The notes below the pieces were generated by a model, which was given only the letters and a program-made list of their open reading frames with translations, did not search any database and had not been told where the DNA came from. Source: Alphaproteobacteria bacterium (GTDB lineage: Bacteria > Pseudomonadota > Alphaproteobacteria > CAAHEQ01 > UBA3637). Taken from it: 64,000 nt of DNA. Positions 2,335 to 50,000 of the stretch are shown in pieces; position 1 is the first letter of the stretch; every line of letters begins with the position of its first letter. The translations under genes and the position numbers were made by a program. The stretch covers positions 13,816 to 77,815 of the forward strand of contig JAZQXL010000012.1 in assembly GCA_045632845.1 (NCBI GenBank). Reading direction: 5' to 3'.

Positions 2335-5420
<3,086 letters not shown>

Positions 5421-5424
<4 letters not shown>

Positions 5425-7235
5425 TTTTCAGAATTTCCCATTTCATCAGCAAGTTCTTTAACAACCTTTGAAAGTTTTTCTTTCGTTTCATCTGTTAAAT
5501 CGTTTGTTGAAGCAATACTTTCTAAAATATCTGGATGTTTTGTTTTGATTAATTCTTGTAATTTTGTTTCAAACAAAGAAACTTTATCTAAATCAATTTC
5601 ATCCAAATATCCGTTCACACCTGCAAAAATTGAAATTACCTCTTCAGGCATTGAATAAGGCTGATACTGTTTTTGTTTCATAATTTCAGTTAAACGAGAA
5701 CCACGATTTAATAACGCTTGTGTTGCTGGATCAAGATCTGATGAAAATTGTGAAAAGTTCATCACTTCACGATATTGTGCCAAATCCAACTTTAACGAAC
5801 CTGCAACCTTTTTCATCGCTTTACTTTGAGCAGCAGATCCCACACGACTAACAGATAAACCAACGTTAATAGCAGGTCTAACCCCTTGCAAAAATAAATT
5901 AGATTCTAAGAAAATCTGACCATCTGTAATTGAAATAACGTTTGTTGGAATATAAGCAGACACATCTCCTTCTTGTGTTTCAATAACAGGAAGAGCCGTT
6001 AAAGAACCACCGCCATTTTCTTGACTAAGTTGTGCCGCTCTTTCAAGTAATCTAGAGTGCAAATAAAAAACATCCCCAGGATATGCTTCACGACCTGTTG
6101 GTCGTTTTAACAATAAAGACATTTCACGATAAGCAACGGCATGCTTTGATAAATCATCATAAAAGACAATAGCATTCATCCCATTATCTCTAAAATATTC
6201 TCCAATTGTGCAACCAGCATATGGTGCCAAATATTGCATTGCAGCACTATCGGATGCTGTTGCAGAAACAATCACCGTATAATCCAAAGCGCCTTTTTCT
6301 TCCAATGTGCGCATAATATCTCGAACAGTTGATTGTTTTTGACCAATTGCCACATAAATACAGAATAATTTTTCTTTATCAGGCAAAATAGCATTCTTTT
6401 CTTTTTGACTTAAAATTGTATCTAAGATAATTGCTGTTTTACCAGTTTGTCTATCGCCAATAATCAACTCACGTTGTCCACGCCCAATTGGAACCAATGC
6501 ATCAATTCCCTTAATTCCTGTTTGGATTGGCCTGTTCACAGAACTTCTTGCAATAATCCCAGGAGCTGGTGCCATAACAGGGTGATGAGGCAAATCTTTT
6601 AAAGATGATTTTCCATCAATAGCTTCACCCAATGGATTTAATACTCGACCCAACAACTCCATACCAACAGGAACTGTATTCATTTGTTGAGTTCTTGTTA
6701 CCAATGCACCTTCTTTAATATTTTGGGCATTATCAAAAATAACAATATCTACCACATCAGGATTTAAATTCAAAGCCATCCCATGTTGACCAGATTCAAA
6801 AACAACACGTTCACCAGCAGCAATCGTTTTTAATCCCTCAACTCTTGCAACACCATCAGAAACTGAAAGGACTTTTCCAACTTCTTTAACTTGCGTTTTT
6901 TCTTCAAACGCATCCACAGATTGAGAGAAAATAGATGCGATTTTATTCACGTCAATGGCTTGAGAAACCTTTGTTTCAATCTCTTTTTGAAATACTGCCA
7001 ATTGACCTTTTACCGAAGAATCAATCAAAAGGGAGTCCACATTCAATGTTAAACCACCAAGCAAAGCGGGATTCACTTTAACTTGCAACATAAAGTTGTC
7101 ATCTTTTAAAATATGAGCTAGTTTTTTTCTTAATGTATCCAATTGTTTTTCGGACAAAGAAACAGCAGACTCAACCTCTATATATCTTGTTGTTTCCGTT
7201 GTTTCATTCATTGTTGTTTCTGTCTTTTCAGCCAT
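5421..7235 (-). CDS. atpA: F0F1 ATP synthase alpha subunit with an in-frame N-terminal fusion to the C-terminal domain of the delta (OSCP) subunit
   Basis: Residues ~95-604 are a canonical alpha subunit (P-loop GDRQTGKTA). Residues ~17-90 ([66 protein letters not shown]) match the C-terminal domain of delta/OSCP. No stop codon separates the two parts. The ATG at 7235 has an AAAGGA Shine-Dalgarno 10 nt upstream. Confidence 0.8.
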
Positions 7236-13872: not shown

Positions 13873-14859
13873 TTGTTCAACAAAAAAAGAAAGAGAATTA
13901 AAATGCAAATTGTTAATACGCATACTGGAAAAATTTATGTAAATCCTGAACGCCGTCTCGAATTTTTAACTGTTGGTGATTATGGAAAAGAAAACAACAT
14001 TAAAGCTGACTTTATGGGACTTCATAAAGAAATTAATGGCGTCCAACACAAGCCTGTCGATTTAACAAAAAAATGGGTTGCCACCATCAGTACACAAAAA
14101 GGCTGCCCAATGAAATGTCAATTTTGTGATTGTCCTAAATATGGTTTTTATGGCAATGCTTCACTTGAAGATTTAAGTTATGAAATTGAAACTATTCTTC
14201 AAAATGAAACCATTAAATATACTGATAGATTTAACGTTCACTTTGCTCGTATGGGCGAACCAACATTCAACCAAAATGTTTTAACATTTGCAAAAGATTA
14301 TTTAAGAGAATTAACAAATAAGTACATTCAAGCAAAAACCATTCATCCAGTTGTTTCAACAATGTTACCTAACAACAACAAAAATTTAAAACAATTTATT
14401 TTGGATTGGTGCAACATTAAAAACATTGATTACAATGGAGAAGCTGGTCTTCAATTTTCAATCAACTCAACAGATAATGAACAAAGAAATCAACAATTCA
14501 ATTCAAAAAGCTTGTCTTTAGAAGAAATATCAGAACTAGCAAAAGAATTACCTACTCCTGTTGGAAGAAAATATACTCTAAACTTTGCCGTTACAAAAGA
14601 TACAATTTTAGATGCTGACAGATTATCCCAATTGTTTGATAAGGATATGTTCATTGTCAAAATAACACCTATTCACGAAACAAATGCAGCAGTTCAAAAT
14701 GGTTTTGACGTCACAACAAGTTATGATGATTATGACGTTTATCGTCAATTTGAACAACCACTTGTTAAAGCTGGGTGGGATGTTATTGTTTTTGTCCCAA
14801 GTCATGAAGAAGACAGCGATAGAATCACATGTGGTAACGCATTAATTGCATCCGCATAA
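13873..14859 (+). CDS. radical SAM enzyme, divergent RlmN/Cfr-like (probable true start at the Met at 13903)
   Basis: CxxxCxxC cluster motif inside TQKGCPMKCQFC (compare RlmN SSQVGCALECKFC). ARMGEP resembles RlmN GMGEP. The C-terminal DRITCGNAL resembles RlmN D.DAACGQL, the methyl-carrier cysteine. The protein is shorter than RlmN (~320 vs ~380 aa) and lacks RlmN's N-terminal domain. Confidence 0.6.
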   Translation: MFNKKRKRIKMQIVNTHTGKIYVNPERRLEFLTVGDYGKENNIKADFMGLHKEINGVQHKPVDLTKKWVATISTQKGCPMKCQFCDCPKYGFYGNASLEDLSYEIETILQNETIKYTDRFNVHFARMGEPTFNQNVLTFAKDYLRELTNKYIQAKTIHPVVSTMLPNNNKNLKQFILDWCNIKNIDYNGEAGLQFSINSTDNEQRNQQFNSKSLSLEEISELAKELPTPVGRKYTLNFAVTKDTILDADRLSQLFDKDMFIVKITPIHETNAAVQNGFDVTTSYDDYDVYRQFEQPLVKAGWDVIVFVPSHEEDSDRITCGNALIASA

Positions 14860-16002: not shown

Positions 16003-16754
16003 TTTTTCCTCTCTGCTTTGCGTAAATTTTCTCTAAAAACCTTTTTCATATCAACAGCCCTTTTCAAATGTTGCTGTTTTTCACGTTTTGGAAAATGTGT
16101 TTTTATGAGCTCTTCTGGTTCAACCAAAAACCATTTATTATCAATTGAGCGAGCCGAATCAACCTCTCTGTTTTTTTGGTATTTTTTCTTTCGAATTTCT
16201 TTCTTATGTTCCCCCGCAGAACGGACATTTTCAAATGTTTTATAATCTCCAGCCATTCCCCAAGTTGCATCAATGAATAACCATTTATTCTTGATATAGA
16301 CAGCATTCCATGCATGTCCATTATCCTTAAAATTATTCATTGTTAAATCATATCCTGCATATCCAGAAATTTGTTCTTCCTTTATACCAGCAATTTTTGC
16401 CATTCTTGAAAAAAGATCTGCAATATCAGCACAAACACCTACACGAGTTTTAAAAGCATCACCCGTTCTTAATGTTTTATTTCTATTTCGAACACGCTTC
16501 TTTTCACTAATCACATCATACTTAAACATATCATATTCAATATGATAAACAATCCAAGCATATAAAACTCTTGTTTTTAAAACATCATCTTGTTTGTATG
16601 GTGCAATTAAATATCGAACCAATGAATCTAAATTATTTTCATATTGTGCAGGAACTGTTTTTGCCCGCATATCAGCTTCAGAAAAATCTGTAGCCAATAC
16701 AGGAGAAACAAATAAAAGAAAGAACAAAGATATAATTACTTTTAACATATTCAA
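15999..16754 (-). CDS. secreted transglutaminase-like cysteine protease
   Basis: Signal peptide. Cys-His-Asp core of the transglutaminase-like superfamily (GVCADIADLF ... GHAWNAVYI ... IDATW). A basic C-terminal tail. 4-nt overlap with alr. Confidence 0.65.
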   Translation of the reverse strand: MNMLKVIISLFFLLFVSPVLATDFSEADMRAKTVPAQYENNLDSLVRYLIAPYKQDDVLKTRVLYAWIVYHIEYDMFKYDVISEKKRVRNRNKTLRTGDAFKTRVGVCADIADLFSRMAKIAGIKEEQISGYAGYDLTMNNFKDNGHAWNAVYIKNKWLFIDATWGMAGDYKTFENVRSAGEHKKEIRKKKYQKNREVDSARSIDNKWFLVEPEELIKTHFPKREKQQHLKRAVDMKKVFRENLRKAERKK

Positions 16755-16793
16755 CCTCTTTGTTTTAGTATAAAAGATTAAGTTTTTTTTACA

Positions 16794-16825
16794 ATAAAAA
16801 AAATGCCCTCAAAAGGGCATTTTTT
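16794..16825. terminator. bidirectional rho-independent terminator
   Basis: ATGCCCT-caaa-AGGGCAT hairpin flanked by an A-run on one side and a T-run on the other. It lies 3' of the 67-aa minus-strand ORF. Confidence 0.6.
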
Positions 16826-16842
16826 AATTTCATCTAACAAAA

Positions 16843-17046
16843 TTATGCTGCTTTTACTTCACAATCACAACTTGCTTTTTCTTCTGTAAACCACATTCTT
16901 TCTTCAAATTCAGACTTTTTACCTTTGTTAAAGTGGCTGTATGGACGAAAATAACCCATAACACGTGTCCAACATTCAACTGATTGTCTTTCATTTTCAC
17001 AGGATTTCAAGATTTCTGCATCTGTCATTTTATCTGTTCCTTTCAA
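16843..17046 (-). CDS. orphan NrdD-like C-terminal zinc-ribbon/glycyl-radical domain protein (67 aa)
   Basis: ...CENERQSVECWTRVMGYFRPYSHFNKGKKSEFEERMWF... aligns with the extreme C-terminus of class III RNR NrdD (TRRVCGYLGSPDARPFNAGKQEEVKRRV), including the RVxGY glycyl-radical motif. No NrdD catalytic body is encoded nearby. The ORF has its own terminator. Confidence 0.5.
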   Translation of the reverse strand: MKGTDKMTDAEILKSCENERQSVECWTRVMGYFRPYSHFNKGKKSEFEERMWFTEEKASCDCEVKAA

Positions 17047-17430
17047 TAGCTGATTTTTGTTTTAAACTGTTTTTTTGTTTTCATAATTCATTGATAGCGA
17101 TGAATCTAAAAGAATGTCAATAGCTTTTTTTGTTTTTTTATATCACATTGAAAAACAACAATTATTTCAATTTTGAACCACGCTTATTTTGTGTTGTTTT
17201 TAGACTAAAAAAACGACTAAAATCTATGTATTTTTTAAAACTCTTTGATTTTCAAATGTATGTCTTTTTTTTAGACTCGAATCCGAATCAAACGGATAAA
17301 AGAATCGATTCTTATGTTTAAATTTATTTTTTTCTTGCATATATGTCTATGTTTGACTAAAGTAGTTATTAGCAGGAACTTCCTGCATAGCGATTGGAAA
17401 CAATCAATCTTTTTATAAAAGGAGTTATTC

Positions 17431-18231
17431 ATGTTTAAAAAAGCATTTTTATTATTAGGTGCAATGACATTTGCAACATCTGCAATGGCAGCAGAATTGA
17501 CAAATCCATTCTATGTTCCAGCAGAAGGCAAAATTACTTCAACAACATCTTATGATTTTTCAACAACCACCCATAAAAGTGGCGATATCCGCCTAAAAGT
17601 TTATGAACACAAAGCAACTGAAACACTTGAATATGGTTTGTCAAATGCTTGGTCACTTGGCGCAACTGTTTCAAACACATGGGGAAAAGGAACTTTATCA
17701 AACTATGATGAAAGTGTAACAGATAGCGAAGATAGAAACATTAATTTTGAAATTACATCAAAATACAATCTTGTTTCAGATGGTGCTTTAAAAGTACAAT
17801 CTCTCTTGGCTTACGGCCAAAAAGAAAATCACCCATTTTACGGTCTTGTTGAAACATCAGGCACATACAAATATGCTAAAATTGGCGCAAAAGCTGGTTA
17901 CAAATTAGGTTATTGGACTCCATATTTAGCTGGTACAGTTGAAGTTCCTGTTTTCCAAAGCCAAGATGACGATAACGAACTTAAATACACAGGTACAGCT
18001 GGATTATATGCATATTGCCCAAAAATGAAAGTTTCTTTTGATCATCAATTAGGCGTTGACTATGATGAATATACTGAAACACGTCTTTACACATATGGTC
18101 TTGAAGCAGCTTATCACTTCACAAAGAATGTTGCTTTAAGTGCTTATGGTAAATACATCATTGATGGCGAAGAACATAAAGAAGATATTCATGGTAATCA
18201 AATTGGTTTAAGATTACGCATTGGATTCTAA
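17431..18231 (+). CDS. outer-membrane beta-barrel protein (Omp25/Omp31/Hbp-like small OMP family)
   Basis: Signal peptide ending AMA. Alternating amphipathic beta-strands rich in Y/G/T. C-terminal RLRIGF ending in Phe, which is the OMP C-terminal signature. 266 aa, typical of 8-strand alphaproteobacterial OMPs. Confidence 0.6.
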   Translation: MFKKAFLLLGAMTFATSAMAAELTNPFYVPAEGKITSTTSYDFSTTTHKSGDIRLKVYEHKATETLEYGLSNAWSLGATVSNTWGKGTLSNYDESVTDSEDRNINFEITSKYNLVSDGALKVQSLLAYGQKENHPFYGLVETSGTYKYAKIGAKAGYKLGYWTPYLAGTVEVPVFQSQDDDNELKYTGTAGLYAYCPKMKVSFDHQLGVDYDEYTETRLYTYGLEAAYHFTKNVALSAYGKYIIDGEEHKEDIHGNQIGLRLRIGF

Positions 18232-18300: not shown

Positions 18301-18987
18301 TTATTGAATAACAGGCAAATCTTTTAAAATATAACCCCTACCCCAAACGGTTTGAATATATTCTTCAGCAGGGGAAAGTTTTTCAATTTTTCGACGTATT
18401 TTGCATAAAAAGACATCAATAATTTTCATTTCAGGCTCATCCATCCCACCGTACAAATGATTTAAAAACTGTTCTTTATTAATTGTTGTTCCTTTTCTAA
18501 GCGCCAATAATTCGAACAAAGAATATTCTTTGCTTGTCAGATGAAGCGTTTTGCCTTCAATTGTAACAATTTTTGAATTTAAATTAACTTCCATCCCGCC
18601 TGTTCGAATAACACTTTCAGCATACCCCTTAGATCTTCGAACTAAAGCATTCACTCTTGCAATCAACTCTCTTGAATCAAATGGTTTTGTCAAATAATCA
18701 TCTGCTCCACAAACAAGACCTTTAACCTTTTTATCTGGCGTAGAAAGACCTGATAAAATCAACACAGGTGTTGAAACATGAGAGGAGCGTAATCTCTTAA
18801 TCACTTCATACCCATCCATATCTGGCAAAATCAAATCTAAAAGTATTAAATCATAATCATAGTGCCGAGCATCTTCCAAACCATCTTCGCCCAAATAAGA
18901 TGCGTCAACAATCATATTCTCTCTTTTTAAAATCAAAGAAATATTTTGACTGACAGCTTTATCATCTTCTATGAGTAAAATACGCAT
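18301..18987 (-). CDS. ctrA: cell-cycle response regulator CtrA (OmpR family)
   Basis: 228 aa. Near-colinear match to CtrA: MRILLIEDD...[25 protein letters not shown]...PVLILSGL...[16 protein letters not shown]...[15 protein letters not shown]...[54 protein letters not shown]. Confidence 0.85.
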
Positions 18988-19201: not shown

Positions 19202-20254
19202 ATGGGTGGATTATTCGAAAAAATTTCAGCGCTTATCACTCAAAAACCCCCTCAACAAAATACTGAGGGCAGTGTTTTGACCATGCAAGAAAGTAAATTT
19301 CACCAATCAGTTCGAAACAACAATTTTGGACAAGTTCACAGCGAAGTAACCCGTGGTTTTGATATAAATTCAAAAAACATTTATGGGAAAACAGGGCTTG
19401 AAATTGCAGCTGAAACTGGCAACATCCAAATGGTTAAGCATCTTGCCTCCCTTGGTGCTAATGTAACAATGCAATCACCCAATGGGGATGGACCTCTTTT
19501 AATAGCTGCTCATCATGGAAATATTGATATGCTATACACACTTGTTAACTTAGGTGCCAACATTAACAAACCAAATTCATATGGTGAAACTATTTTACAT
19601 AAATTTTCAATTAATCAAGAAAAAGATGCTTATACTCATCAAGAATTATTAAATTTAGGGGCCAACATTGAAGCAAGAGATATTTATGGAAAAACACCAC
19701 TTCATCACCAAGTAGGGGCTAACAGTGAAGATACGGTTTATCAATTACTTTCATTTAATGCAAATGTAAATGCACGTGATAAAGAAGGAAGAACTCCCCT
19801 TTATGATGCCGTTACATATGGAAACAACAATATTTTCGAAACACTTTTAAGTTTTAATCCAAATGTTAATATTCCTGACAAAAATGGCTCAACCCCAGTA
19901 CACGTTGCAGCACAAACAAACAATTCCCACTTTATAAAACGTCTTGTTGAACAGGGGGGGAACATCAATGCACGTGATGCGTATGGCCAAACACCCTTTC
20001 ACTATGCTGTTGCAGCTGGCAACGTTGAAGCAGCCTCAATGTTGATAAAAATGGGTGCAAATCCACATATTCGTGATAGCTTAGGTCAAACCCCACTTAG
20101 TAAAGCACCAAATCAACAAGTTTTGACAAAAATGAAATTGTTAATCCAAGATCAAAAAACACCAAATCTTTCTACTTCTCTTGCAAACAATGGGATGCCT
20201 TATCAAGAAAGAATAGGTACTCTATCTCAAAACAATCGTTTCAATGAACAATAA
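19202..20254 (+). CDS. ankyrin-repeat protein
   Basis: 350 aa with at least 7 tandem ANK repeats (G.TPLH.A...G....V..L...GA..N....). There is no signal peptide, so it is a candidate secreted effector. Confidence 0.85.
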   Translation: MGGLFEKISALITQKPPQQNTEGSVLTMQESKFHQSVRNNNFGQVHSEVTRGFDINSKNIYGKTGLEIAAETGNIQMVKHLASLGANVTMQSPNGDGPLLIAAHHGNIDMLYTLVNLGANINKPNSYGETILHKFSINQEKDAYTHQELLNLGANIEARDIYGKTPLHHQVGANSEDTVYQLLSFNANVNARDKEGRTPLYDAVTYGNNNIFETLLSFNPNVNIPDKNGSTPVHVAAQTNNSHFIKRLVEQGGNINARDAYGQTPFHYAVAAGNVEAASMLIKMGANPHIRDSLGQTPLSKAPNQQVLTKMKLLIQDQKTPNLSTSLANNGMPYQERIGTLSQNNRFNEQ

Positions 20255-29984: not shown

Positions 29985-31637
29985 TTATTCTCTACCCATT
30001 AAAGAAGCAACAAATGCTTTTGGTAAAAGGCGTTTTTGCTGTTTAGTCATTGGTGCTAAAATATCAACACCATTTTCATCCACACATTTTGCAATGCATC
30101 TTTTTAACGTATCCATAATCTTGATTGATTCTGGTGTTTTTTGTTTTTTTGCCACAGCATATTGACGCAAAATAAGATTCATATCTTCTTTTTTAAATGG
30201 TAAAAAATGACTACTTTTTAAAATATTATCCATTAAATTTACAGCTTCTGGAACTTTTCTAATAAACAACAAAATACTTTTAAACGTTCTGCGTTTTATA
30301 CTGTTCGCAAGTTGATAACTTTCAAAAGTTGGCAACTGAACAGTCATCAATCTATCCCACAACAATGTTGCTATTTCCAAATTTCTCATTTTAAGAGCAA
30401 TTAGAATGGGGTTTTCTTTTTTAGCATTAAAACTTTGAAACCAAAAAACTTCATTTCTCGTAATTAAATCCACCATTGCTGTATCATTGTTTTGAATAGC
30501 CAAATGAATTAAAAAATCACCACTTTTATTTTTAAAAGGCAAAACTTTTTGGCCATTTTTTAACAACTCTTGAAAACTTGTTACATCTTTTTGACGCACC
30601 AAATTTTCTTGTCTTAAAAAATCTTTTTTGTACTCTAAATTTCTTTTTTTATACTCAAGGAGTATACGCTCTCCTTCGTTCAAACGAGCAGCTATTTCTT
30701 TTTTGTTTGAAAACAACTTCAAAAGTTGTTTAAAATTCTTTTTTCCCAAAGCCTGAAGCTGATTTGCCACATATTCACAAATAAATTGTGTTACAAATTT
30801 ACCTTCATCCGTTTTTTCAAAATCAGTAGAATAATCATAAAAATATCCACGATAATGGTGATCATCCATTTCAATTGAGAGTAATTTTTCAGCACACAAA
30901 ACACGTTCATTTTCATTCAAAAGAACTAATGCAGGTTTATCTTCTCTTCTTTTTTTGGTGTTAATAAACGCATGAAAATTTGTATGTTTCCAATTTCTTT
31001 CTTGCTGCTTATCAGAATATGAAACAACATGTAAAACAGTTGATTTACTTGCTTGCATTGGAAACCTACTCGCACATGCAACAACTTTAAACGCTTTGCA
31101 AATTTTTAATCTATCCTTAAGAGGACATTTCATTTTTTTTAATTGTTGCTCAAGCAATTTTGCCATTTCATACGAAACAAAACCACCATAGCAATAACCA
31201 ACCAAAATCAACCGATTTAATTTATCACAAATTTCTTTAGTTGATTTTAGTTTTTTATTTTCATCAACTAAAAGAGGTAAAAAAAACTGATTAAAAAATG
31301 GTTTAAAATCAGGCGAAGGGGGTAATTCTTCTTTTGGCAAAGAGCTTTTAACATCCAAAAGAACACCTGCTTCTTTCAAACTTTTAATACGATGTGTTGG
31401 AACACCATGATCATCATAATAAGCACAAAGAACCTCTGTGTTCTTTGGCATCAAATCACCCATACTGTCACAAAAACGCTTGATACACCCATTTGCTGAT
31501 TTTGGCTTATCAACTGTTCCGCCCGGCATAATCAAAACAACATTTCCATTTTCAGGAAATTTAAAATCTGAAATGTCTCTCCAATGTGTTTGGGCGACTG
31601 ACAAATCTCTTGTCCCTAAAGAAACATTTTCGATCAT
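29985..31637 (-). CDS. hypothetical protein with alpha/beta-hydrolase-like N-terminal region and ankyrin-like repeats
   Basis: 550 aa. GYCYGG resembles a GxSxG nucleophile elbow with Cys in place of Ser. The C-terminal third has ANK-like repeats (GDFLIHLAIQNNDTAMVDLI...NPILIALKMRNLEIATLL). No signal peptide. Confidence 0.4.
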   Translation of the reverse strand: MIENVSLGTRDLSVAQTHWRDISDFKFPENGNVVLIMPGGTVDKPKSANGCIKRFCDSMGDLMPKNTEVLCAYYDDHGVPTHRIKSLKEAGVLLDVKSSLPKEELPPSPDFKPFFNQFFLPLLVDENKKLKSTKEICDKLNRLILVGYCYGGFVSYEMAKLLEQQLKKMKCPLKDRLKICKAFKVVACASRFPMQASKSTVLHVVSYSDKQQERNWKHTNFHAFINTKKRREDKPALVLLNENERVLCAEKLLSIEMDDHHYRGYFYDYSTDFEKTDEGKFVTQFICEYVANQLQALGKKNFKQLLKLFSNKKEIAARLNEGERILLEYKKRNLEYKKDFLRQENLVRQKDVTSFQELLKNGQKVLPFKNKSGDFLIHLAIQNNDTAMVDLITRNEVFWFQSFNAKKENPILIALKMRNLEIATLLWDRLMTVQLPTFESYQLANSIKRRTFKSILLFIRKVPEAVNLMDNILKSSHFLPFKKEDMNLILRQYAVAKKQKTPESIKIMDTLKRCIAKCVDENGVDILAPMTKQQKRLLPKAFVASLMGRE

Positions 31638-41051: not shown

Positions 41052-44000
41052 TTAGAAGTTTTGTTTTAACTTCATCATACCACCATGTTCTTGATAGGAT
41101 TTTCTAAATGATCCCAAGTATTCAACAGAAAGGGTAGTAAGATCTCCAAGTTCTGCATCAATACCCAAATTGACATTTGTGCTAAATCTATCAAGTGCAT
41201 TTCCTTCTGCGGTATACACAGCACCATTAGAAAGTGTATTAATTGAACCCGTATCATCTGAAATAATATCATATCCAAACATTACACCTGCTGTTGGTCT
41301 GATATAAAGCCCGTGAACTGTTTTGTACGGAGCACGAATATCAATTCCTGCCATTGCAGTCATATAGCGATAAGTGTTGTTATCAATATGTGTATCTAAT
41401 GAATCAACATATGCTTCTTGGTTGATATCCATATATTTCAAACCAAGCTTTGGTGTGATAATTAAGTCACGGCAGCTAAAGTCATATCCTGCCATTGCTT
41501 GAACAGCAAAAGTATCCACATTATACATCCCATCAGATGCTGTTGAAAGAATGTTTTTTGACTCCTCATATTGTGAACGAGAATAACTGACAACACCTTC
41601 GACAAACCATTTGTTTGGTTGATATCTTGCAAAAGCAAAACCTGTGTTTGTTTGTGCTGTTGTATCACGACCAGATTGAGCAATATCTGCATACCCATAT
41701 GCATAACCAACACCCACAGTTAATGTATCTGTAATTTGTTTTTGAATACCAGCCACAAAACCTGTTTCGTTTGCTTTGAAATCACCTTTGTCATCATATT
41801 TTGCATGCCCATAAAGTGCTTTTACCCAAACTTGTGCATTTTGTGTTTCATCACCACCTGAGGTACCTTCAACTTTTGAAGATAATTTAACTTGGTCACT
41901 CACCGCATCTGTGATACCTTTAAAGTGTGATGAGGCAATTGATTGAACAACTGGAGAAACATTTCCACCTAAATTGTCAAGAGCTTTTACAGCCTTTTTA
42001 ATTAATGCTGCATTTCCAGATTGCAAATGTTCAATCAACTCTGTTTGAGCTTTGTTGAACAATTCATTTGTTCCACGCCCTTCATGCAATGCGATAATGG
42101 CAGCTGTTTGATTTTTATCAGAACCATATTGATTTGAAATTTTAGAACTATCTTTTGAAATGAATGAATATCTACCATCTTCTAAATCTAAGAAATTGAA
42201 ACCTTCATCATTATGTACTGCTGTTGGCAATGATGAAATGGCATCCATTTTAAGAACATTGTATAATCCCATTTCAAAATTTTCACCTAGGTCAAAATCA
42301 ATTTTAGAATCTTCTTCAGAAATTAAATTTGTACCTATCAATGAACCATAATCAGAACGATCATTCAACTGAACATTTAATGTTGAACCATTTTCTAATG
42401 TAATTTCTTGTGCGGTTACATCAATATTTCTGATATCAAGATTTGTATCATTTTGAACAGTTAAATTTGCAACTTCAATTGTTTTGATATCTTCACCAAA
42501 CTGCATATTATTGCTGACAAGATTATTAGATGTTGCAAAACCGTCTTTTACGTTCAATGTAGCACCATTCATGGTCAATGTACCATTACCTGTTAATGCA
42601 TTTGTAATTGAAAGATTACCTGTTGCAATCATTTGGTTGTTATTTTCAACAGAAGCAAATGTTGAATTATCAACATTTATTGTTCCTAAGTTTGAAGCAT
42701 TTTCAATCACAGAATTACCTTGAACGGTTAAAGTTCCCGTTCCTTTATTTTCAACAGTTGTAACCATTGAACCTGTTAACGTAGCATTACCAGTATTATC
42801 AAGAGAGGTGATTGTATCTTCTGTTGATGTTAAACTGTTGTTGTTTGTAACAGTACCCAACTTGGAGTTACTTGATGTTAACTTACCATCATTTGTGATT
42901 GTATCAACATTTGTAACACCTGATAATGTTGTGTTGCCATCTTGAGCATTATTAAGCGTTTTAATTGTACCACCTGTTGCTGTGAGTGTTCCGTTATTAA
43001 CAGTTAATAAACCAACTGTTGTATTAGTTAACCCTGTTGTTCCATCTTGGTTTGTCAACGTTGTGATAGAACCACCTTCTACCGTTAACGTACCACTGTT
43101 TGTAAGTGTTGCAACAGTTGTATCTGTTAACGTAGCACCACCAGTATTATCAAGTGACGTGATTGTATCTTCTGTTGATGTTAAACTGTTGTTATTTGTA
43201 ACAGTACCCAACTTAGATTTACCTGATGTTAATACACCATCATTTGTGATTGTATCAACATTTGTAACACCTGATAATTTTGTGTTACCATCTTGAGCAT
43301 TATTAAGTGTTTTGATTGTACCACCTGTTGCTGTGAGTGTTCCTTTATTAACAGTTAATGAACCAACTGTTGTATTGGTTAACCCTGTTGTTCCATCTTG
43401 GTTTGTCAACGTTGTGATAGAACCACCTTCTACCGTTAACGTACCACTGTTTGTAAGTGTTGCAACAGTTGTATTAGTTAACCCAGCACTACCAGTATTA
43501 TCAAGTGAAGTGATTGTATCTTCTGTTGATGTTAAACTGTTGTTGTTTGTAACAGTACCCAACTTAGATTTACCTGATGTTAATACACCATCATTTGTGA
43601 TTGTATCAACATTTGTAACACCTGATAATTTTGTGTTACCATCTTGAGCGTTATTAAGTGTTTCAATTGATCCACCTGTTGCTGTAACTGTTCCTTTATT
43701 CACTGTTAATGTACCAACAGTTGTATCAGTTAACCCTGCTGTTCCATCTTGGTTTGTTAAAGTTGTGATAGATCCACCCTCGGCAACAAATGTTCCTTCG
43801 TTTGTAACACCTTGCAAATTGCTGTTAGAAGATTTCATCGTTCCACTATTTGCAAGTAAAGCATTCGCATCATTGATTTGAACATTGTTTAATACCAAAC
43901 CATACTCACCACTTGTGGATAAATTATCAATAACAACTGTTGGTGCTGTGTTTGCTAAAGTGTCAATAATAACATTATCAAGAATAGCATTGCCATTTGT

Positions 44001-47000
44001 CATTGTTAAAATAGATATTGCATTTTTAATTGTTAAATCTTGAACAGTTAATTTTGTACTTGCATCTGAGACTTCAAACATACTGTGATTATTTGCATCA
44101 ATAATACTTGCACTGGCATCTCCTGCAACAGCACCAAGGATTAATTTTTCACCAATCCCTGTTGCACCCAAATCTGAAGTCATTTGATATGTTGAACCTG
44201 TTTCTCCATCAACAGACATATAGAAATTACTATTCCCTGCATATTGGTTAATATGGGTTAAAGAATTACCATCTGTCGTTTTGAATGCTTTTAATTCAAC
44301 AGTTTGCAAATCATCTGAGATAATTGCATTATATGTATAAGCATTTGTCACAGCATTAAATGATGTTGAACCTTTTAATGCATCTGCAAATGTAGCATTA
44401 CCTTGCAAAACTTGAACGGTGTAACTTGTTGATGTGCCATCATCTTTGTTTGCATCTTGATTATTAACCCCTGTTGGCACAACTTTGAAATTTGCATTTG
44501 CAACAACAAAAGCATTGTCACCAGTTACATTCAACACATCTGATTTTGCAATCACACCATTAAATCCACCATCAATAGCATTTGAAACAAGACCAATATC
44601 AACCGCTAATGTTGTATTGCTTCCTGCAACATTTTGCATATTCACAACTGAATAAATATCATCTTGCATATTGATGGTTGAATTATCAAATTGATATGTT
44701 TCACCAGCATATTCGTTTGCTGTCAACTGAACAGTTGCATTGTCAAATTTAATCAAATCTTCTACTGTTCCAGAACCCATGTCAGTCAATGTATATGTCC
44801 CATTTTTGAATGAAATCGTTGAAGTTCCAACTTCCCCATCTGACAAAACAATTTTGTTTGCATTGTGGACAACTGTTTCATCTGATGTGGTTGATTCAAA
44901 TGAAATTATACCATTTCCTGTTGCTGTTGCAGTGTATCCAATTGTATCGCCTTTTGTTTCAAGTATACCACCTGAAATTGTGTTTACTCCTTGGAAGAAG
45001 TTTTCACTATCTGCAATTGTTTTTCCACCTGTTTGATTAAATTCACCTGTGAATGTTTTTACATTTTCACTTCCAAAAGTTAAATTGCCTGAATTGTTAA
45101 TAGTGCCGGCACCCTCAATTGTTCCAGCAAAGTGAACTGCCCCAGATAAATTCATTTCACCTTGATGAGAGATATTAGAAAAAGACGTATTGTTTGCATT
45201 TAATGTTGCACCAGACAAAACATTTGTATCTCCAGTAACTGAAAGTGTATTAGCAACACCATTTAAAGAAACGCTCCCTCCATTTACATTCAAGTTTGTA
45301 AGAGCTGTATTGGTTAATTTAGCTGTTCCATCTTGGTTTGTCAATGTTGTGATAGATCCACCGTTAGCTGTTAATGCACCACTGTTTGTAAGTGTTGCAA
45401 CAGTTGTATCTGTTAACTCAGCACCACCAGTATTATCAAGTGACGTGATTGTATCTTCTGTTGATGTTAAACTGTTGTTATTTGTAACAGTGCCCAACTT
45501 AGATTTACCTGATGTTAATACACCATCATTTGTGATTGTATCAACATTTGTAACATCTGATAATTTTGTGTTACCATCTTGAGCATTATTAAGTGTTTTA
45601 ATTGTACCACCTGTTGCTGTAACTGTTCCTTTATTAACAGTTAATGAACCAACTGTTGTATCAGTTAACCCTGTTGTTCCATCTTGGTTTGTTAAAGTTG
45701 TGATAGATCCACCGTTAGCTGTTAATGCACCACTGTTTGTAAGTGTTGTAACAGTTGTATTAGTTAACTCAGCACCACCAGTATTATCAAGTGAAATAAT
45801 TGTATCTTCTGTTGATGTTAACACGCCTTTATTTGTTACAACACCAAGTGTTGAGCTATTGCTTGCTAAAGAACCACTATTTTCGACATCTTTAAATGAA
45901 ACATTGGTTGCGTTTAATTTGCCATCTGTTGCAATGGTTGTTTTTCCACCAACTGTTAAAGGGGTTGTTGTACCAATCAAACCAACTACCCCACCTGTTA
46001 CATCTAATACTCCAGATATAGTTGTATCTATTAAGGTTGTACTCCCTGCAGTGTTCAACAAAGAAGAAATTGATCCACCATTTGTTGTGAAAGACCCACT
46101 GTTTTCAACAGATGTTAATGTAGAATTTACACCATTAAATCTGCCTGAGTTTATCAAGTCTTTTAATGTGCTATTTTGAACATTCATAGCCCCTGAGTTT
46201 TCAATCAAATCTTCAGCATCTTGAATGTGAACATTTTTTAAAACAAGCCCATAAGTTGTATCATCCCCTGCAGCGTTTGACATAATTGGATTTGCAACTA
46301 AATTGCCATTCTCAAGCCCAACATTTGTTGTGTTATGAATCCAGACATTTTCAAAAGTTGTTGTACCTGCACCTTGCGCTGTTGTTAAAACAGAACTTGT
46401 ATCTGTGATTGCAACATCTTTTACCGTTAAATTTGTATCGGCATTTGATACATCAAACATCGAATAGCCATTAGCATCAATGGTACTTTTGATAATGTTC
46501 GATCCATCTGTATAACCTTGAACAAGCTTGTTTCCTGTGCCTGTTGTACCCAAAGATGAATTCATTTCATATCTTGAATCAAGATTTGTCATATAAAAAG
46601 CACTATCCCCTGTATACTGATTAACAGCTCTTAATGAATCGCCATTTGCAGCTTGAATTGCCGTTAACTCAATTGTTTGAGAATCTTTTAATCCCACATT
46701 ATATTGATAGACATCTGTTGAAACAAGAGCACTGTTTATTGGAGTGTTAAATGTGACACCTTCCAAAACCTTTTTAGAAATGCTTGTTGTTAAACCGCTA
46801 TCTAACTGAACATTGTTAATAATCTGAACTTTTGTTAAATCCAAATCAAAAGAAGATGTATTACTTGGATTTAAAACTGTGATTGTATCTGAACCCAAAG
46901 CTAATGTGCCATCTGTATTTTTTGAAAGTTTAACGTCAAATGCTAAATCTGTGTTAGAAAGGAAAAGATTATCTCCTGTAAATTGAATATTGCTTAACCC

Positions 47001-50000
47001 ATTTCCTCTCAAATCAACTGTTGTATCATTAAAACTGTATGTTTCACCAGCATATTCGTTTGCTGTCAATTGAACTGTTGCATTGTCAAACTTGATTAAA
47101 TCTTCTGCTGTTCCAGAACCCATATCAGCCAATGTATATGTCCCATTTTTGAATGAAATCGTTGAAGTTCCATTTTGCACATTTGATAAGACAATTTTGT
47201 TTGCATCGTGGACAACAGATGTATCTGAAGAAGTTGATTCAAATGAAATTGCACCACGCCCTGTAGCTGTTGCAGTATATCCAATTGTATCGCCTTTTGT
47301 TTCAAGTATACCACCTGAAATTATGTTTGATTTTTGGAAGAAGTTGTTGCTATCTGCAATTGTTTTACCATCTGTTTGGCTAAATGTACCAACATATTTT
47401 GTATTATCCGCAGCACCTAAAATCAAATTGCCAGAATTTGTGATACTTCCAGTACCAGAGACACCTCCTGTCAACTGAATATCTCCAGACAAATTTGTTT
47501 TCCCTTGTCCTGAAAGCAAACCAGTCACAATGGAATCCGTTAATGTAACTGAGCCCAGATCATTTGTTAACCCTGCTATTGAACTATCAGTTGCGGTAAA
47601 ATTCCCTGCAACAATAACATCAGAAAAAGCTGTCCTGTCAGCTGTTAAATCTGTGCCAGTTGCGACGGTTGTTTTCCCAGAAACAACTGTATCCTCTAAA
47701 GCAACATCACCCCCCGTGATTCCCAATGCTCCAGTGATTTGAGTAGAGGTCAAATCAGCTTTACCACCTGTGTTTGCTAAACTTGCAAGAGAACCACCAA
47801 GAATGGTCAAATCACCGCTGTTTGTAAGACCTTGCATTGTAGCATTTACTGCATTTAATGTACCAGCATTTTCAACGGCTGAAAGGCTTGCATTGTTTGT
47901 TGCTAAAAGTGTACCATTAGCGCCAACAGTTGTTTTACCATTGATGATGGAACCATTTAAATCAACATCGCCACCTGTAATAGCAAGAGAACCATTGACA
48001 CCAGCAGACATTAAAGTTGCTGTTCCATTCGTATTGCTCAAACTTTCTAATGTACTATCTGTTGCTGTAAAAGTTCCTGCATTTTCAACACCAGCTAAAC
48101 TTGTACCATTCGTTGCTGAAAGTTTTGCAGCTGCTCCAACAATTGTTTTGCTGATAACAACAGTATCATCCAAATTAACTGTTCCGCCTGTGGCTGTAAT
48201 TGTGTTATCAACATGTGCAGAACTTAAAGTTGCTGTTCCATTCGTATTGCTCAAACTTTCTAATGTACTATCTGTAACTGTAAAAGTTCCTGCATTTTCA
48301 ACTGTTGCAAATCTTGTGTTGTTTGTTGCCAAAAGAGTACCATCAGCTCCAACAGTCGTTTTGTCAGCAACAGTTACACCATCTAAATCAACTGTTCCAG
48401 CTGTTGCATTTAAAGTTCCATTAACTTTAGTCGATGTTAAAGCAGCTGTTCCACCACTGTTTGTTAAACTTGCAAGTGAACCCCCATTGGCTGTGAAAAT
48501 TCCTGCATTTTCAACAGCTGCAAATGTTGTATTGTTTATTGCTGAAAGGGAACCATCAGCTCCAACTGTTGTTTTTCCACCAACAGTTGCTCCGTCTAAA
48601 TCAACCGTTCCGCCTATTACATCTAAAGTACCAGTAATTGCAGCATCTGTTAAAGCAGCTGTTCCACCAGTATTTATTAAACTTGCAAGTGAACCACCAT
48701 TGACTGTAAAATCTCCTTCATTTTCAACATTTTCAAACGTTGTATTGTTTGTTGCCAAAAGAGTACCATCAGCTCCAACAGTCGTTTTGTCAGCAACAGT
48801 TACACCATCTAAATCAACCGTTCCGCCTGTTGCATTTAAAGTTCCATTAACTTTAGTCGATGTTAAATCAGCTGTTCCACCTGTATTTGTTAAATCTGTA
48901 AGTGAACCACCATTGGCTGTAAAAGTTCCCGCATTTTCAACATCTGCAAATGTTGTATTGTTTATTGCTGAAAGGGAACCATCAGCTCCAACTGTTGTTT
49001 TGTCAGCAACAGTTGCACCATCTAAATCAACCGTTCCGCCTGTTGTATTCAAAGCACCAGTAATTGCAGTATCTGTTAAAGTCCCTGTTCCACTAGTATT
49101 TGTTAAATCTGCAAGTGAACCCCCATTGGCTGTGAAAGTTCCTGCATTTTCAACACCTGCTAAACTTGTACCATTCGTTGATAAGAGTGTACCATCAGCT
49201 CCAACTGTTGTTTTTCCACCAACAGTTGTTCCGTCTAAATTAACTGTTCCAGCTGTTGCATCTAAAGGTCCATTAATTTGAGTCGATGTTAAAGTTGCTG
49301 TTCCACCACTGTTTGTTAAATCTGTAAGTAACCCCCCATTGGCTGTGAAAGTTCCTGCATTTTCAACGTCTGAAAGACTTGTGTTGCCTGTTGCTGAAAC
49401 TTTACCATTGGCACCAACAGTTGTTTTTCCATCAACAGTTGTACCATGTAAACTAACAGCTCCGCCTGTTACATCTAAAGCACCAGTAATTGTAGCATCT
49501 GTTAAACTTGCTGTTCCACCTATATTTGTTAAATCTGTAAGTGAACCACCAGTAACACCAAGCCCCCCCCATTCATTTAAAACATGTTGCATTACAGTAT
49601 TTGTTGCCGTTAAGTTTCCACTATACGATAAATTCGTATCTCCAGAAATTTCAACATCAGTCAAATTTGTAAGACCCAAACCTTGAACGTTTAAAGCACC
49701 AAGAGTCCCTCCTTGAATGGTTAAAGAACCACCATTTATAACATTTTGCATTGCAACATCAACTGCATTTAATGCTGCGCCAAAACCAACTGTTGTTTTA
49801 TCAGCAACAGTTGCACCATCTAAACTAACAGTTCCCCCTGTTACATCTAAAGCACCAGTAATTGTAGCCTCTGTTAAAGTCCCTGTTCCACTAGTGTTTG
49901 TTAAATCTGTAAGTGAACCACCATTGGCTGTGAAAGTTCCTGCATTTTCAACATCTGCAAATGTTGTATTGTTTGTTGCTGAAAGGGAACCTGATGTTCC

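Follow-up and report, generated by a model that had tools for sequence, protein, structure and literature searches.

The stretch of DNA analyzed here, 64,000 nucleotides in length and referred to below as the window, carries a minus-strand open reading frame at 16843–17046, present both in the list of reading frames and in the sequence. The initial annotation described it as a stand-alone ORF of 67 amino acids. The frame is real, and its start has been corrected: translation almost certainly begins at the ATG at 17028 rather than at the TTG at 17046, which yields a stand-alone NrdD glycyl-radical subunit of 61 amino acids (MTDAEILKSCENERQSVECWTRVMGYFRPYSHFNKGKKSEFEERMWFTEEKASCDCEVKAA; CDS 16843–17028, minus strand, stop codon included). 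The ATG is preferred because the ~60-aa homologues of the protein all begin with MTD, an AAAGGAA ribosome-binding site is located 9 nt upstream of it, and the TTG at 17046 abuts the 5′ side of this site. The ribosome-binding site (AAAGGAAC) occupies positions 17036–17043 of the minus strand, and its GAAAGGAA is invariant in seven upstream regions from two lineages.

The small gene is flanked by the gene of an outer-membrane β-barrel protein and by a transglutaminase-like gene, not by nrdD-large and nrdG. Neither an NrdD barrel nor NrdG was found in the 64-kb window by tblastn, and neither was found by Pfam scans among its ORFs of at least 120 aa, in agreement with the initial annotation. The other ORFs of the window are of the ordinary housekeeping kind (ATP synthase, RNase E, alr, gyrB, recF, dnaN, Lon, DnaK/J and others). 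The 384 bp upstream of the ORF (17047–17430), described from the start as non-coding, indeed hold no gene.

This upstream intergenic region is unusually conserved, with a mean column identity of 85%. It includes a sigma-70-like promoter (17091–17120, minus strand), composed of TTGACA (17120–17115), an 18-nt spacer and TATCAA (17096–17091) with an A-rich tract ahead of it. Between lineages in which synonymous sites are near saturation, the block AAAAAAGCTATTGACAxTCxTTTxGATTCxTCGCTATCAATGA hardly varies, and TTGACA-N18-TATCAA, which is close to consensus, probably works as a promoter. A consensus promoter scan missed it on account of the terminal A of the second hexamer. The previously noted intrinsic terminator is confirmed immediately downstream of the stop codon (16798–16825, minus strand), with a 12-pair stem containing four G–C pairs and a run of T; two terminator-like sites were found, against 0.1 expected in shuffled sequences. 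A scan of 16600–17600 against Rfam revealed no riboswitch or known RNA (best match Atu_C8, 24.6 bits against a gathering score of 50). An FNR-like box overlapping the −10 element (TTGAT-AGCG-ATGAA, 17092–17105) was considered and dropped, one of its half-sites not being conserved in the related lineage P0001.

The 61-aa protein matches the Pfam family NRDD (PF13597) with an E-value of 1.8e-9 and 37.3 bits against a cut-off of 26.2. The match is confined to the last ~35 positions of the profile (526–560 of 562), and the NCBIfam NrdD models TIGR02487, NF006358 and NF006126 also match the protein at their last ~40 positions only. NRDD is the sole Pfam match at E-values up to 1; no match to Gly_radical (PF01228) or GrcA was obtained. 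The motif RVMGY…FNKGKK…E…R is present in the ORF, and its original reading as the extreme C-terminus of anaerobic (class III) ribonucleotide reductase (RNR), the glycine included, is borne out by the NRDD match and by the invariance of this glycine. Profile matches and alignments thus establish the protein as an NrdD glycyl-radical domain.

The predicted radical-bearing residue, placed at the tip of a hairpin by the AlphaFold2 model, is Gly25 in the 61-aa numbering (codon 16954–16956, minus strand). It is invariant in two alignments, one of 27 diverse and one of 46 closer homologues. The conserved core comprises residues 14–49 (RQSVECWTRVMGYFRPYSHFNKGKKSEFEERMWFTE; 16882–16989, minus strand), for which a β-hairpin (20–23 and 26–29) followed by a helix (35–44) is predicted. 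Its invariant columns in the alignment of diverse homologues are E18, W20, R22, M24, G25, Y26, R28, P29, N34, G36, K37, E40 and R44, and core residues align with residues 613–645 of the Thermotoga maritima NrdD.

The ORF had also been credited with the Cys pair of a zinc-ribbon remnant, a description that has to be abandoned. Cys19 is the single conserved Cys before the glycine in the small protein, Cys10 is not conserved, and a C-terminal CxC is conserved only inside the gut alphaproteobacterial clade. The four-ligand zinc ribbon is absent from the 61-aa chain, and its CxxH…CxxC sits at the C-terminus of a separate large subunit. The ten-stranded catalytic barrel with the Cys loop is absent as well, being encoded in relatives by a separate gene of ~685 aa.

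The AlphaFold2 model of the 61-aa protein (mean pLDDT 78.8) consists of a helix (3–9), two strands (20–23 and 26–29) with Gly25 at the turn between them, and a second helix (35–44). The same succession of helix, β-hairpin and helix has been described for glycyl-radical domains (PMC13450708). A profile search of the PDB gave a weak match to the T. maritima NrdD (E 0.08), and a phmmer search of the PDB with the single 61-aa sequence gave none. Foldseek comparison of the model with the PDB returned nothing significant (best E 3.9); this result is not counted against the NrdD assignment, since an extended domain of 61 aa is a poor query.

Substitutions in the orphan gene, as the copy in the window is called below, demonstrate strong purifying selection at the sequence level. 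Pairwise comparison of the window and of contigs with an identical protein yields 3–9 synonymous and 0 nonsynonymous differences. Comparison of the window with the P0001 lineage gives a dS of 0.6–1.1, a dN of 0.043 and a dN/dS of 0.04–0.07; for other pairs across the window-species and P0001 lineages the ratio goes down to 0.03. The reading frame is intact and of identical length in at least 13 independent contigs, and in at least four species-level lineages the gene has kept its syntenic position. Conservation and dN/dS in related genomes had been proposed as a check in the initial annotation, and both speak for a working gene.

The window ORF is, by its sequence, a member of a very large unnamed family of proteins of ~55–80 aa. 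A protein search gave 266 matches, and the best 120 listed are all stand-alone proteins of 58–86 aa with the NRDD domain. Among 1.84 billion cluster representatives, a profile search found 3818 at E ≤ 1e-3 and 785 at E ≤ 1e-10; the best 150 of the 3818 are all 52–153 aa long. The family core, ERQxCE[VI]W / VECW-TRVMGYxRP...FNxGK..E..R, is present in the window protein. NCBIfam has no model dedicated to the family, and in PHROGs it falls in phrog_4132, labeled ‘unknown function’.

The usual context of such genes can be seen in a metagenome-assembled genome (MAG) of a gut alphaproteobacterium, where the small gene (P0009) lies 19 bp after the gene of a 684-aa NrdD and just before that of a 228-aa radical-SAM NrdG. 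The 684-aa NrdD contains an ATP-cone and an NRDD domain and ends …CPKHGYISGEHKYCPLCDKELIERKRKEMEAQA, right after the CxxH…CxxC zinc ribbon and without the glycine motif. The Pfam NRDD model is partitioned between the two chains, positions 2–534 being matched by the large chain and 526–561 by the small one.

A survey in which one genome per species was scanned with the large chain gave 80 loci, originating from Alphaproteobacteria, Coriobacteriaceae/Atopobiaceae, Sutterella, Duganella, Undibacterium, Kangiella, Rhodocyclaceae, Thiobacillus, Elusimicrobiota and others. At 75 of them nrdD-large stops after the ribbon, without the glycine, and is followed by a separate small ORF and then by nrdG; the small ORF begins after a gap of 4–336 nt or with an overlap, usually in another frame. 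One locus is fused (Desulfocurvus), and four are without a small gene, three of these being cut by or near a contig end. In fused relatives, 2–11 residues separate the zinc ribbon from the CEVWTRVMGY strand. Exactly at this linker point, the split forms carry a tail of ~15 aa on the large chain and a head of 15–30 aa on the small chain. Since in 75 of the 80 species the small gene stands between a glycine-less NrdD gene and nrdG, gene structure establishes that the class III RNR of this NrdD lineage is naturally split into two polypeptides.

The same layout is found on the megaplasmid pHG1 of Cupriavidus necator H16, where a 676-aa ‘ribonucleoside triphosphate reductase’, a 66-aa gene and nrdG follow one another. 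RefSeq labels the 66-aa gene ‘nrdD’ (H16_RS32675 / WP_011154154.1). According to Siedow et al. in 1999, the nrdD/nrdG region of pHG1 is reportedly required for anaerobic growth. Among plasmid records searched by tblastn, 161 contain the small ORF, which is often unannotated; they come mainly from Ralstonia, Bradyrhizobium, Cupriavidus and Paracoccus. Motifs of the small protein were used to draw an unbiased sample from metagenomes, which contained 45 linked split loci, 9 fused loci, 13 lone small genes, 5 loci cut upstream with an adjacent nrdG and 8 uninformative loci, so that lone genes account for 13 of the 72 informative ones.

At the window locus the gene order is response regulator, outer-membrane β-barrel, small gene, transglutaminase-like, alanine racemase. 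This synteny recurs in the contigs carrying an identical protein and in three related lineages, P0001 (92% identical), P0243 (one residue different) and P0241 (89%); over the shared region, P0243 genomes are 78–88% identical in DNA to the window. The P0243 species possesses both the orphan and an operon composed of NrdD-large (P0123), its own 61-aa small gene and nrdG in GCA_017466695.1 and GCA_054276675.1. A single contig of 115,749 bp carries the operon at ~1–4 kb and the P0243-type orphan at ~82.7 kb. In the P0241 species, the orphan is accompanied by an L004-type operon in GCA_045614025.1, GCA_045655105.1, GCA_017533325.1 and two metagenome samples. The absence of an operon from the window fits this arrangement: on the 115,749-bp contig the operon lies ~80 kb off on the dnaN/Lon side, which would place it beyond coordinate 64000. 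Because sister genomes with the same synteny carry a full operon together with the unlinked copy, the window ORF is most probably a second, independently transcribed copy of the small-subunit gene.

Orphan and operon paralogue of one genome are ~67% identical; residues 14–47 of the core are almost identical, and the differences fall in the N-terminal 13 and C-terminal 14 residues. In a neighbour-joining tree, built on 60 residues without bootstrap, the orphans cluster tightly beside the operon copies of their own host clade, a hint which suggests that the orphan arose by an old duplication within that clade.

Lone copies also occur in phages. One homologue (P0026) belongs to a prophage, in which it follows a lysozyme gene close to the integrase, and the same element is an IMG/VR viral contig. 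Scanning of IMG/VR with the family alignment yielded 511 stretches encoding a relative. Among the best 80 of these, 9 relatives are next to or within NrdD and 71 are lone small ORFs; 53 of the 71 have informative flanks (at least 2.5 kb upstream and at least 1.2 kb downstream) free of nrdD-large and nrdG, and these represent 43 distinct groups. In four loci (L103 and L001–L003) the small gene is located between a lysis cassette and an integrase, and in L102 it lies between the genes of a Holliday-junction resolvase and an endolysin, one small ORF before the latter. At least 6 of the 13 lone metagenome loci match viral contigs or carry lysis genes. In the GenBank phage collection only ANMV-1 was found, with a full NrdD, and the phage copies were seen via IMG/VR. 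No copy, whether from a phage or not, departs from the full motif or lacks the radical glycine.

The reading preferred here, held with fair though not high confidence, is that the window ORF works as a second gene, transcribed on its own, for the small glycyl-radical subunit of a class III RNR made of two polypeptides. The 61-aa protein would dock its β-hairpin into the barrel of NrdD-large, and NrdG with S-adenosylmethionine would convert Gly25 to a glycyl radical, from which the active-site thiyl radical could be generated. Oxygen cleaves glycyl-radical chains at the glycine, as established for pyruvate formate-lyase (PFL) and NrdD, and such cleavage would destroy the small chain here. Exchange of a detachable radical subunit could then spare the cell a new 685-aa chain. 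With a strong promoter of its own, the extra gene may provide replacement or additional subunits independently of nrd operon control, which would apply the logic of GrcA to RNR. Phages with the small gene alone could do likewise for the host enzyme during infection.

A spare part comparable to GrcA had been suggested in the initial annotation as the alternative to a decayed remnant, and the genomic side of this proposal stands: sister genomes combine the orphan with an intact class III RNR. The orphan is not a unique fragment excised from a fused NrdD. The glycyl-radical domain is normally a separate gene in this NrdD lineage (75 of 80 species), so the orphan is a second paralogue of a regular subunit. 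A GrcA-like supply of replacement or extra radical subunits is deduced by analogy, and repair in particular is a proposal of this kind. The same data fit repair, dosage and an alternative isoform, and the extra copy could serve dosage or differential regulation.

Of the other explanations, that of an alternative isoform survives best, although it is unlikely. The orphan protein would in this case confer other properties on the reductase, or be produced under other conditions, than the operon copy, without replacing damaged chains. Paralogues that share the core and diverge at both ends are compatible with such a role, and so are the regulatory signals. NrdR-box-like sequences (ACACTATATGTTGT pairs) are located upstream of the operon nrdD-large in relatives and in pHG1, and no NrdR box scoring at least 12 of 16 was found upstream of the orphan, which suggests, without proving it, that the orphan is regulated separately from the operon. 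Phages that carry the small gene alone, however, fit a limiting or consumable part better than fine-tuning. Otherwise the present data do not separate an isoform from a spare part.

It is still less likely that the window ORF is the sole glycyl-radical subunit gene of its genome, moved away from nrdD-large and nrdG, and hence essential rather than spare. Unlinked genes of this kind do exist: in a Holosporaceae MAG (L059), nrdD-large lies between gyrB and the gene of an LRR protein, neither a small gene nor nrdG being present within 6 kb, and in L030 an unrelated ORF follows nrdD-large. That no operon was found in the 64-kb window is also in line with relocation. Against it, the operon keeps its own small gene in every sister genome in which both loci were traced (two assemblies and one contig for the P0243 species, three assemblies and two samples for the P0241 species), and the orphans form a tight clade of their own, apart from the operon copies.

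The chance is slight that the orphan is a phage-derived ‘moron’ left in the chromosome and acting against, or independently of, the host RNR, for example as a decoy, by titrating NrdG or blocking the barrel. The majority of lone copies are indeed found in phages, and the region of the window is a hot spot of mobile DNA, where the presence of a resolvase and of a phage-type radical SAM gene varies and where L279 carries a phage-like insertion. The glycine and the whole motif are, however, invariant in the lone copies as in all others, and an inhibitor would not need them, which argues for function rather than inhibition. The orphans also group with operon copies of the same clade, within the low resolution of the neighbour-joining tree, and housekeeping genes flank the orphan in four lineages.

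Two further explanations can be set aside as having next to no probability. The 328-aa radical SAM protein encoded 2 kb away (13873–14859) has a very weak NrdG-like match (E 0.025–0.05) and could be imagined to form with the orphan a new, RNR-independent glycyl-radical pair, but its gene, two genes off and on the other strand, belongs to the phage family phrog_24834 (E 1e-105) and is missing from P0001 and P0243, two lineages that retain the orphan. The decayed fragment of a former full-length nrdD, as considered in the initial annotation, would account for the coverage of only the last ~6% of canonical NrdD and for the lack of a barrel nearby, but such a pseudogene is refuted by the dN/dS of 0.03–0.07, by a frame intact and of the same length in at least 13 independent contigs, by the synteny over four lineages, by the conservation of ribosome-binding site, promoter and terminator, and by a family of 3818 representative clusters whose best 150 members are all 52–153 aa long.

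Beyond the window, the second-gene reading can be extended, tentatively and as a serious possibility, to a large branch of class III RNRs, which would be two-chain enzymes with an exchangeable radical subunit, bacterial and phage spare copies sustaining anaerobic dNTP synthesis. Cupriavidus, Ralstonia, Bradyrhizobium, Paracoccus, Sutterella, Coriobacteriia and gut Alphaproteobacteria would be members of this branch. Dozens of temperate phage lineages would encode spares, to be used after oxygen damage or during infection.

Every anaerobe needs RNR to make DNA, and to our knowledge PFL is the only glycyl-radical enzyme with a known spare-part repair protein, GrcA. If the two-chain reading is true, RNR possesses an analogous and more radical solution, in which the radical resides on a detachable subunit of 6–7 kDa and extra copies of its gene are provided. 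The picture of quaternary structure and activation cycle would have to be revised for many class III RNRs. Hundreds of unnamed small ORFs, including unannotated ones of plasmids and genomes and those of phrog_4132, would receive a name, and a common overlooked auxiliary gene of phages would be identified in gut and environmental viromes. A spare module for NrdD was not known to the initial annotation, and a literature search likewise found no description of a split class III RNR, an NrdD spare part or a phage-borne lone NrdD radical domain, coverage in subscription journals being possible. The interpretation therefore appears undescribed; the genes themselves have been seen before, and some of the small ORFs are already labeled ‘nrdD’ in databases.

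A division of RNR between two genes has a precedent in class II. In the split enzyme NrdJa + NrdJb of Pseudomonas aeruginosa, a C-terminal functional domain is provided by a separate gene (PMC5704485; PMC9669993), and according to one analysis split domains may be distinct to class II (PMC9669993). The present case differs from NrdJa/NrdJb in class and in the part that is split off, which in the class II enzyme is a Cys-rich, reductant-shuttling domain and not the radical site. With the one-chain NrdD of phage T4, E. coli and T. maritima, the window protein shares the glycyl-radical hairpin motif and its position right after the zinc ribbon. The domain is covalently included there in a chain of ~600–700 aa, whereas here it is a free protein of 61 aa.

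In sequence, the window gene is closest to the small ‘nrdD’ genes that lie in operons, for example that of pHG1 (WP_011154154.1, 66 aa). The pHG1 protein belongs to the same family, has the same invariant core and is accompanied by the same kind of partner, an NrdD-large ending in CxxH…CxxC. The pHG1 gene is, however, part of an operon, whereas the window gene lies outside the nrd operon with a promoter and a terminator of its own. The window protein shares ~67–75% identity with operon copies from its own clade, against 45% with the pHG1 copy, and is a diverged paralogue.

The nearest functional parallel would be offered by the spare parts of PFL. Phage T4 Y06I is reportedly an autonomous glycyl-radical ‘spare part’ for PFL, a phage-borne counterpart of GrcA. 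GrcA (YfiD) of E. coli serves as the spare part of the same enzyme (PMC8683613, PMC6754787, PMC9112899). Like the window protein, GrcA is small, stands alone, is homologous only to the C-terminal glycyl-radical domain of such an enzyme and is encoded apart from the enzyme gene. The proposed logic, replacement of a radical domain cleaved by oxygen, would be common to both, and so is the co-existence with a complete enzyme system elsewhere in the genome, represented in the sister genomes by the operon with its own small gene. Repair activity has been demonstrated for GrcA and is assigned here by analogy. The sequence families are different, the window protein matching NRDD and not Gly_radical; the target is PFL in one case and RNR in the other, and GrcA is about twice as long. 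The radical domain of PFL is fused to the enzyme, whereas that of this RNR is already separate, so that its exchange would need no prior cleavage.

The gene for the catalytic chain of the split class III RNR, nrdD-large, is followed by neither the small gene nor nrdG at L059 in a Holosporaceae MAG (4901-6973), where it is flanked by gyrB and an LRR-protein gene, and at L030 (6001-8294), where an unrelated ORF begins 27 nt past its stop codon. The nrdD-large, small and nrdG genes can evidently be dispersed. In a Methylophaga MAG (L069), the small gene occurs between nrdD-large and nrdG as a nearly identical tandem pair (3131-3302 and 3368-3548), and the duplicated unit includes approximately 40 nt of upstream sequence; the duplication may be genuine or may stem from faulty assembly.

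NrdR-box-like sequences (ACACTATATGTTGT with an inverted partner) are located directly upstream of nrdD-large in three operons (L004, 7853-7888; L267, 2936-2971; L100, 1698-1713). No comparable site was found in the region upstream of the orphan small gene. The intergenic 400 bp separating the small gene from the divergent outer-membrane-protein gene is unusually highly conserved, and direct repeats occur at 17203-17221 and 17278-17289 (GACTAAA twice with a 12-bp period; CGAATC in tandem). Since an adjoining gene (18301-18987) encodes an OmpR-type response regulator, these repeats may be candidate binding sites of this regulator.

Mobile DNA is concentrated around the orphan, making this region a hot spot. 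A gene on the forward strand (13873-14859) encodes a 328-aa radical SAM protein with the motif CPMKCQFC, which matches phrog_24834, a phage family of unknown function (E 1e-105); its Pfam and NCBIfam matches (RlmN/Cfr-like) are weak. The radical SAM gene adjoins a resolvase gene in relatives L014-L017 and L272-L281, and is lacking in relatives L008-L013 and L261-L263; the window carries it without the resolvase gene. In one relative (L279, 351-2650), a phage-like gene block encoding a CI-like repressor, an M78 peptidase and a DUF4417 protein is inserted beside the orphan, between the response-regulator and outer-membrane-protein genes.

Elsewhere in the window, the ATP synthase alpha subunit (5421-7235, reverse strand; 604 aa) has, at its N-terminal end, the second (C-terminal) half of an OSCP/delta domain and looks like a delta-alpha fusion; the product has the identical size of 604 aa in relatives. 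A 3302-aa ORF (41052-50960, reverse strand) gave no Pfam match at E ≤ 1e-4, and several long overlapping ORFs are present on the opposite strand. Two possible ankyrin-repeat proteins are encoded at 29985-31637 (reverse strand; Pfam Ank_2 at 23.2 bits, below the cut-off of 27.3) and 19202-20254 (forward strand; ankyrin-like by reading of the sequence only). Together with the AT-richness of the genome, they may point to a life in association with a host; the sources of related contigs are ruminant and human gut metagenomes.

In alignments A1 (27 diverse small-protein homologues) and A3 (46 closer ones), a lone cysteine precedes the radical glycine by 8 or 6 residues (CEVW or VECW), and both positions lie on one face of the strand. 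Both cysteines occur in some phage copies, and neither occurs in L037-L042. Many small subunits end in a CxC or CC motif, reminiscent of the redox cysteine pairs at the C-termini of class I and II RNRs. In the window protein, the cysteines concerned are residues 19, 54 and 56.
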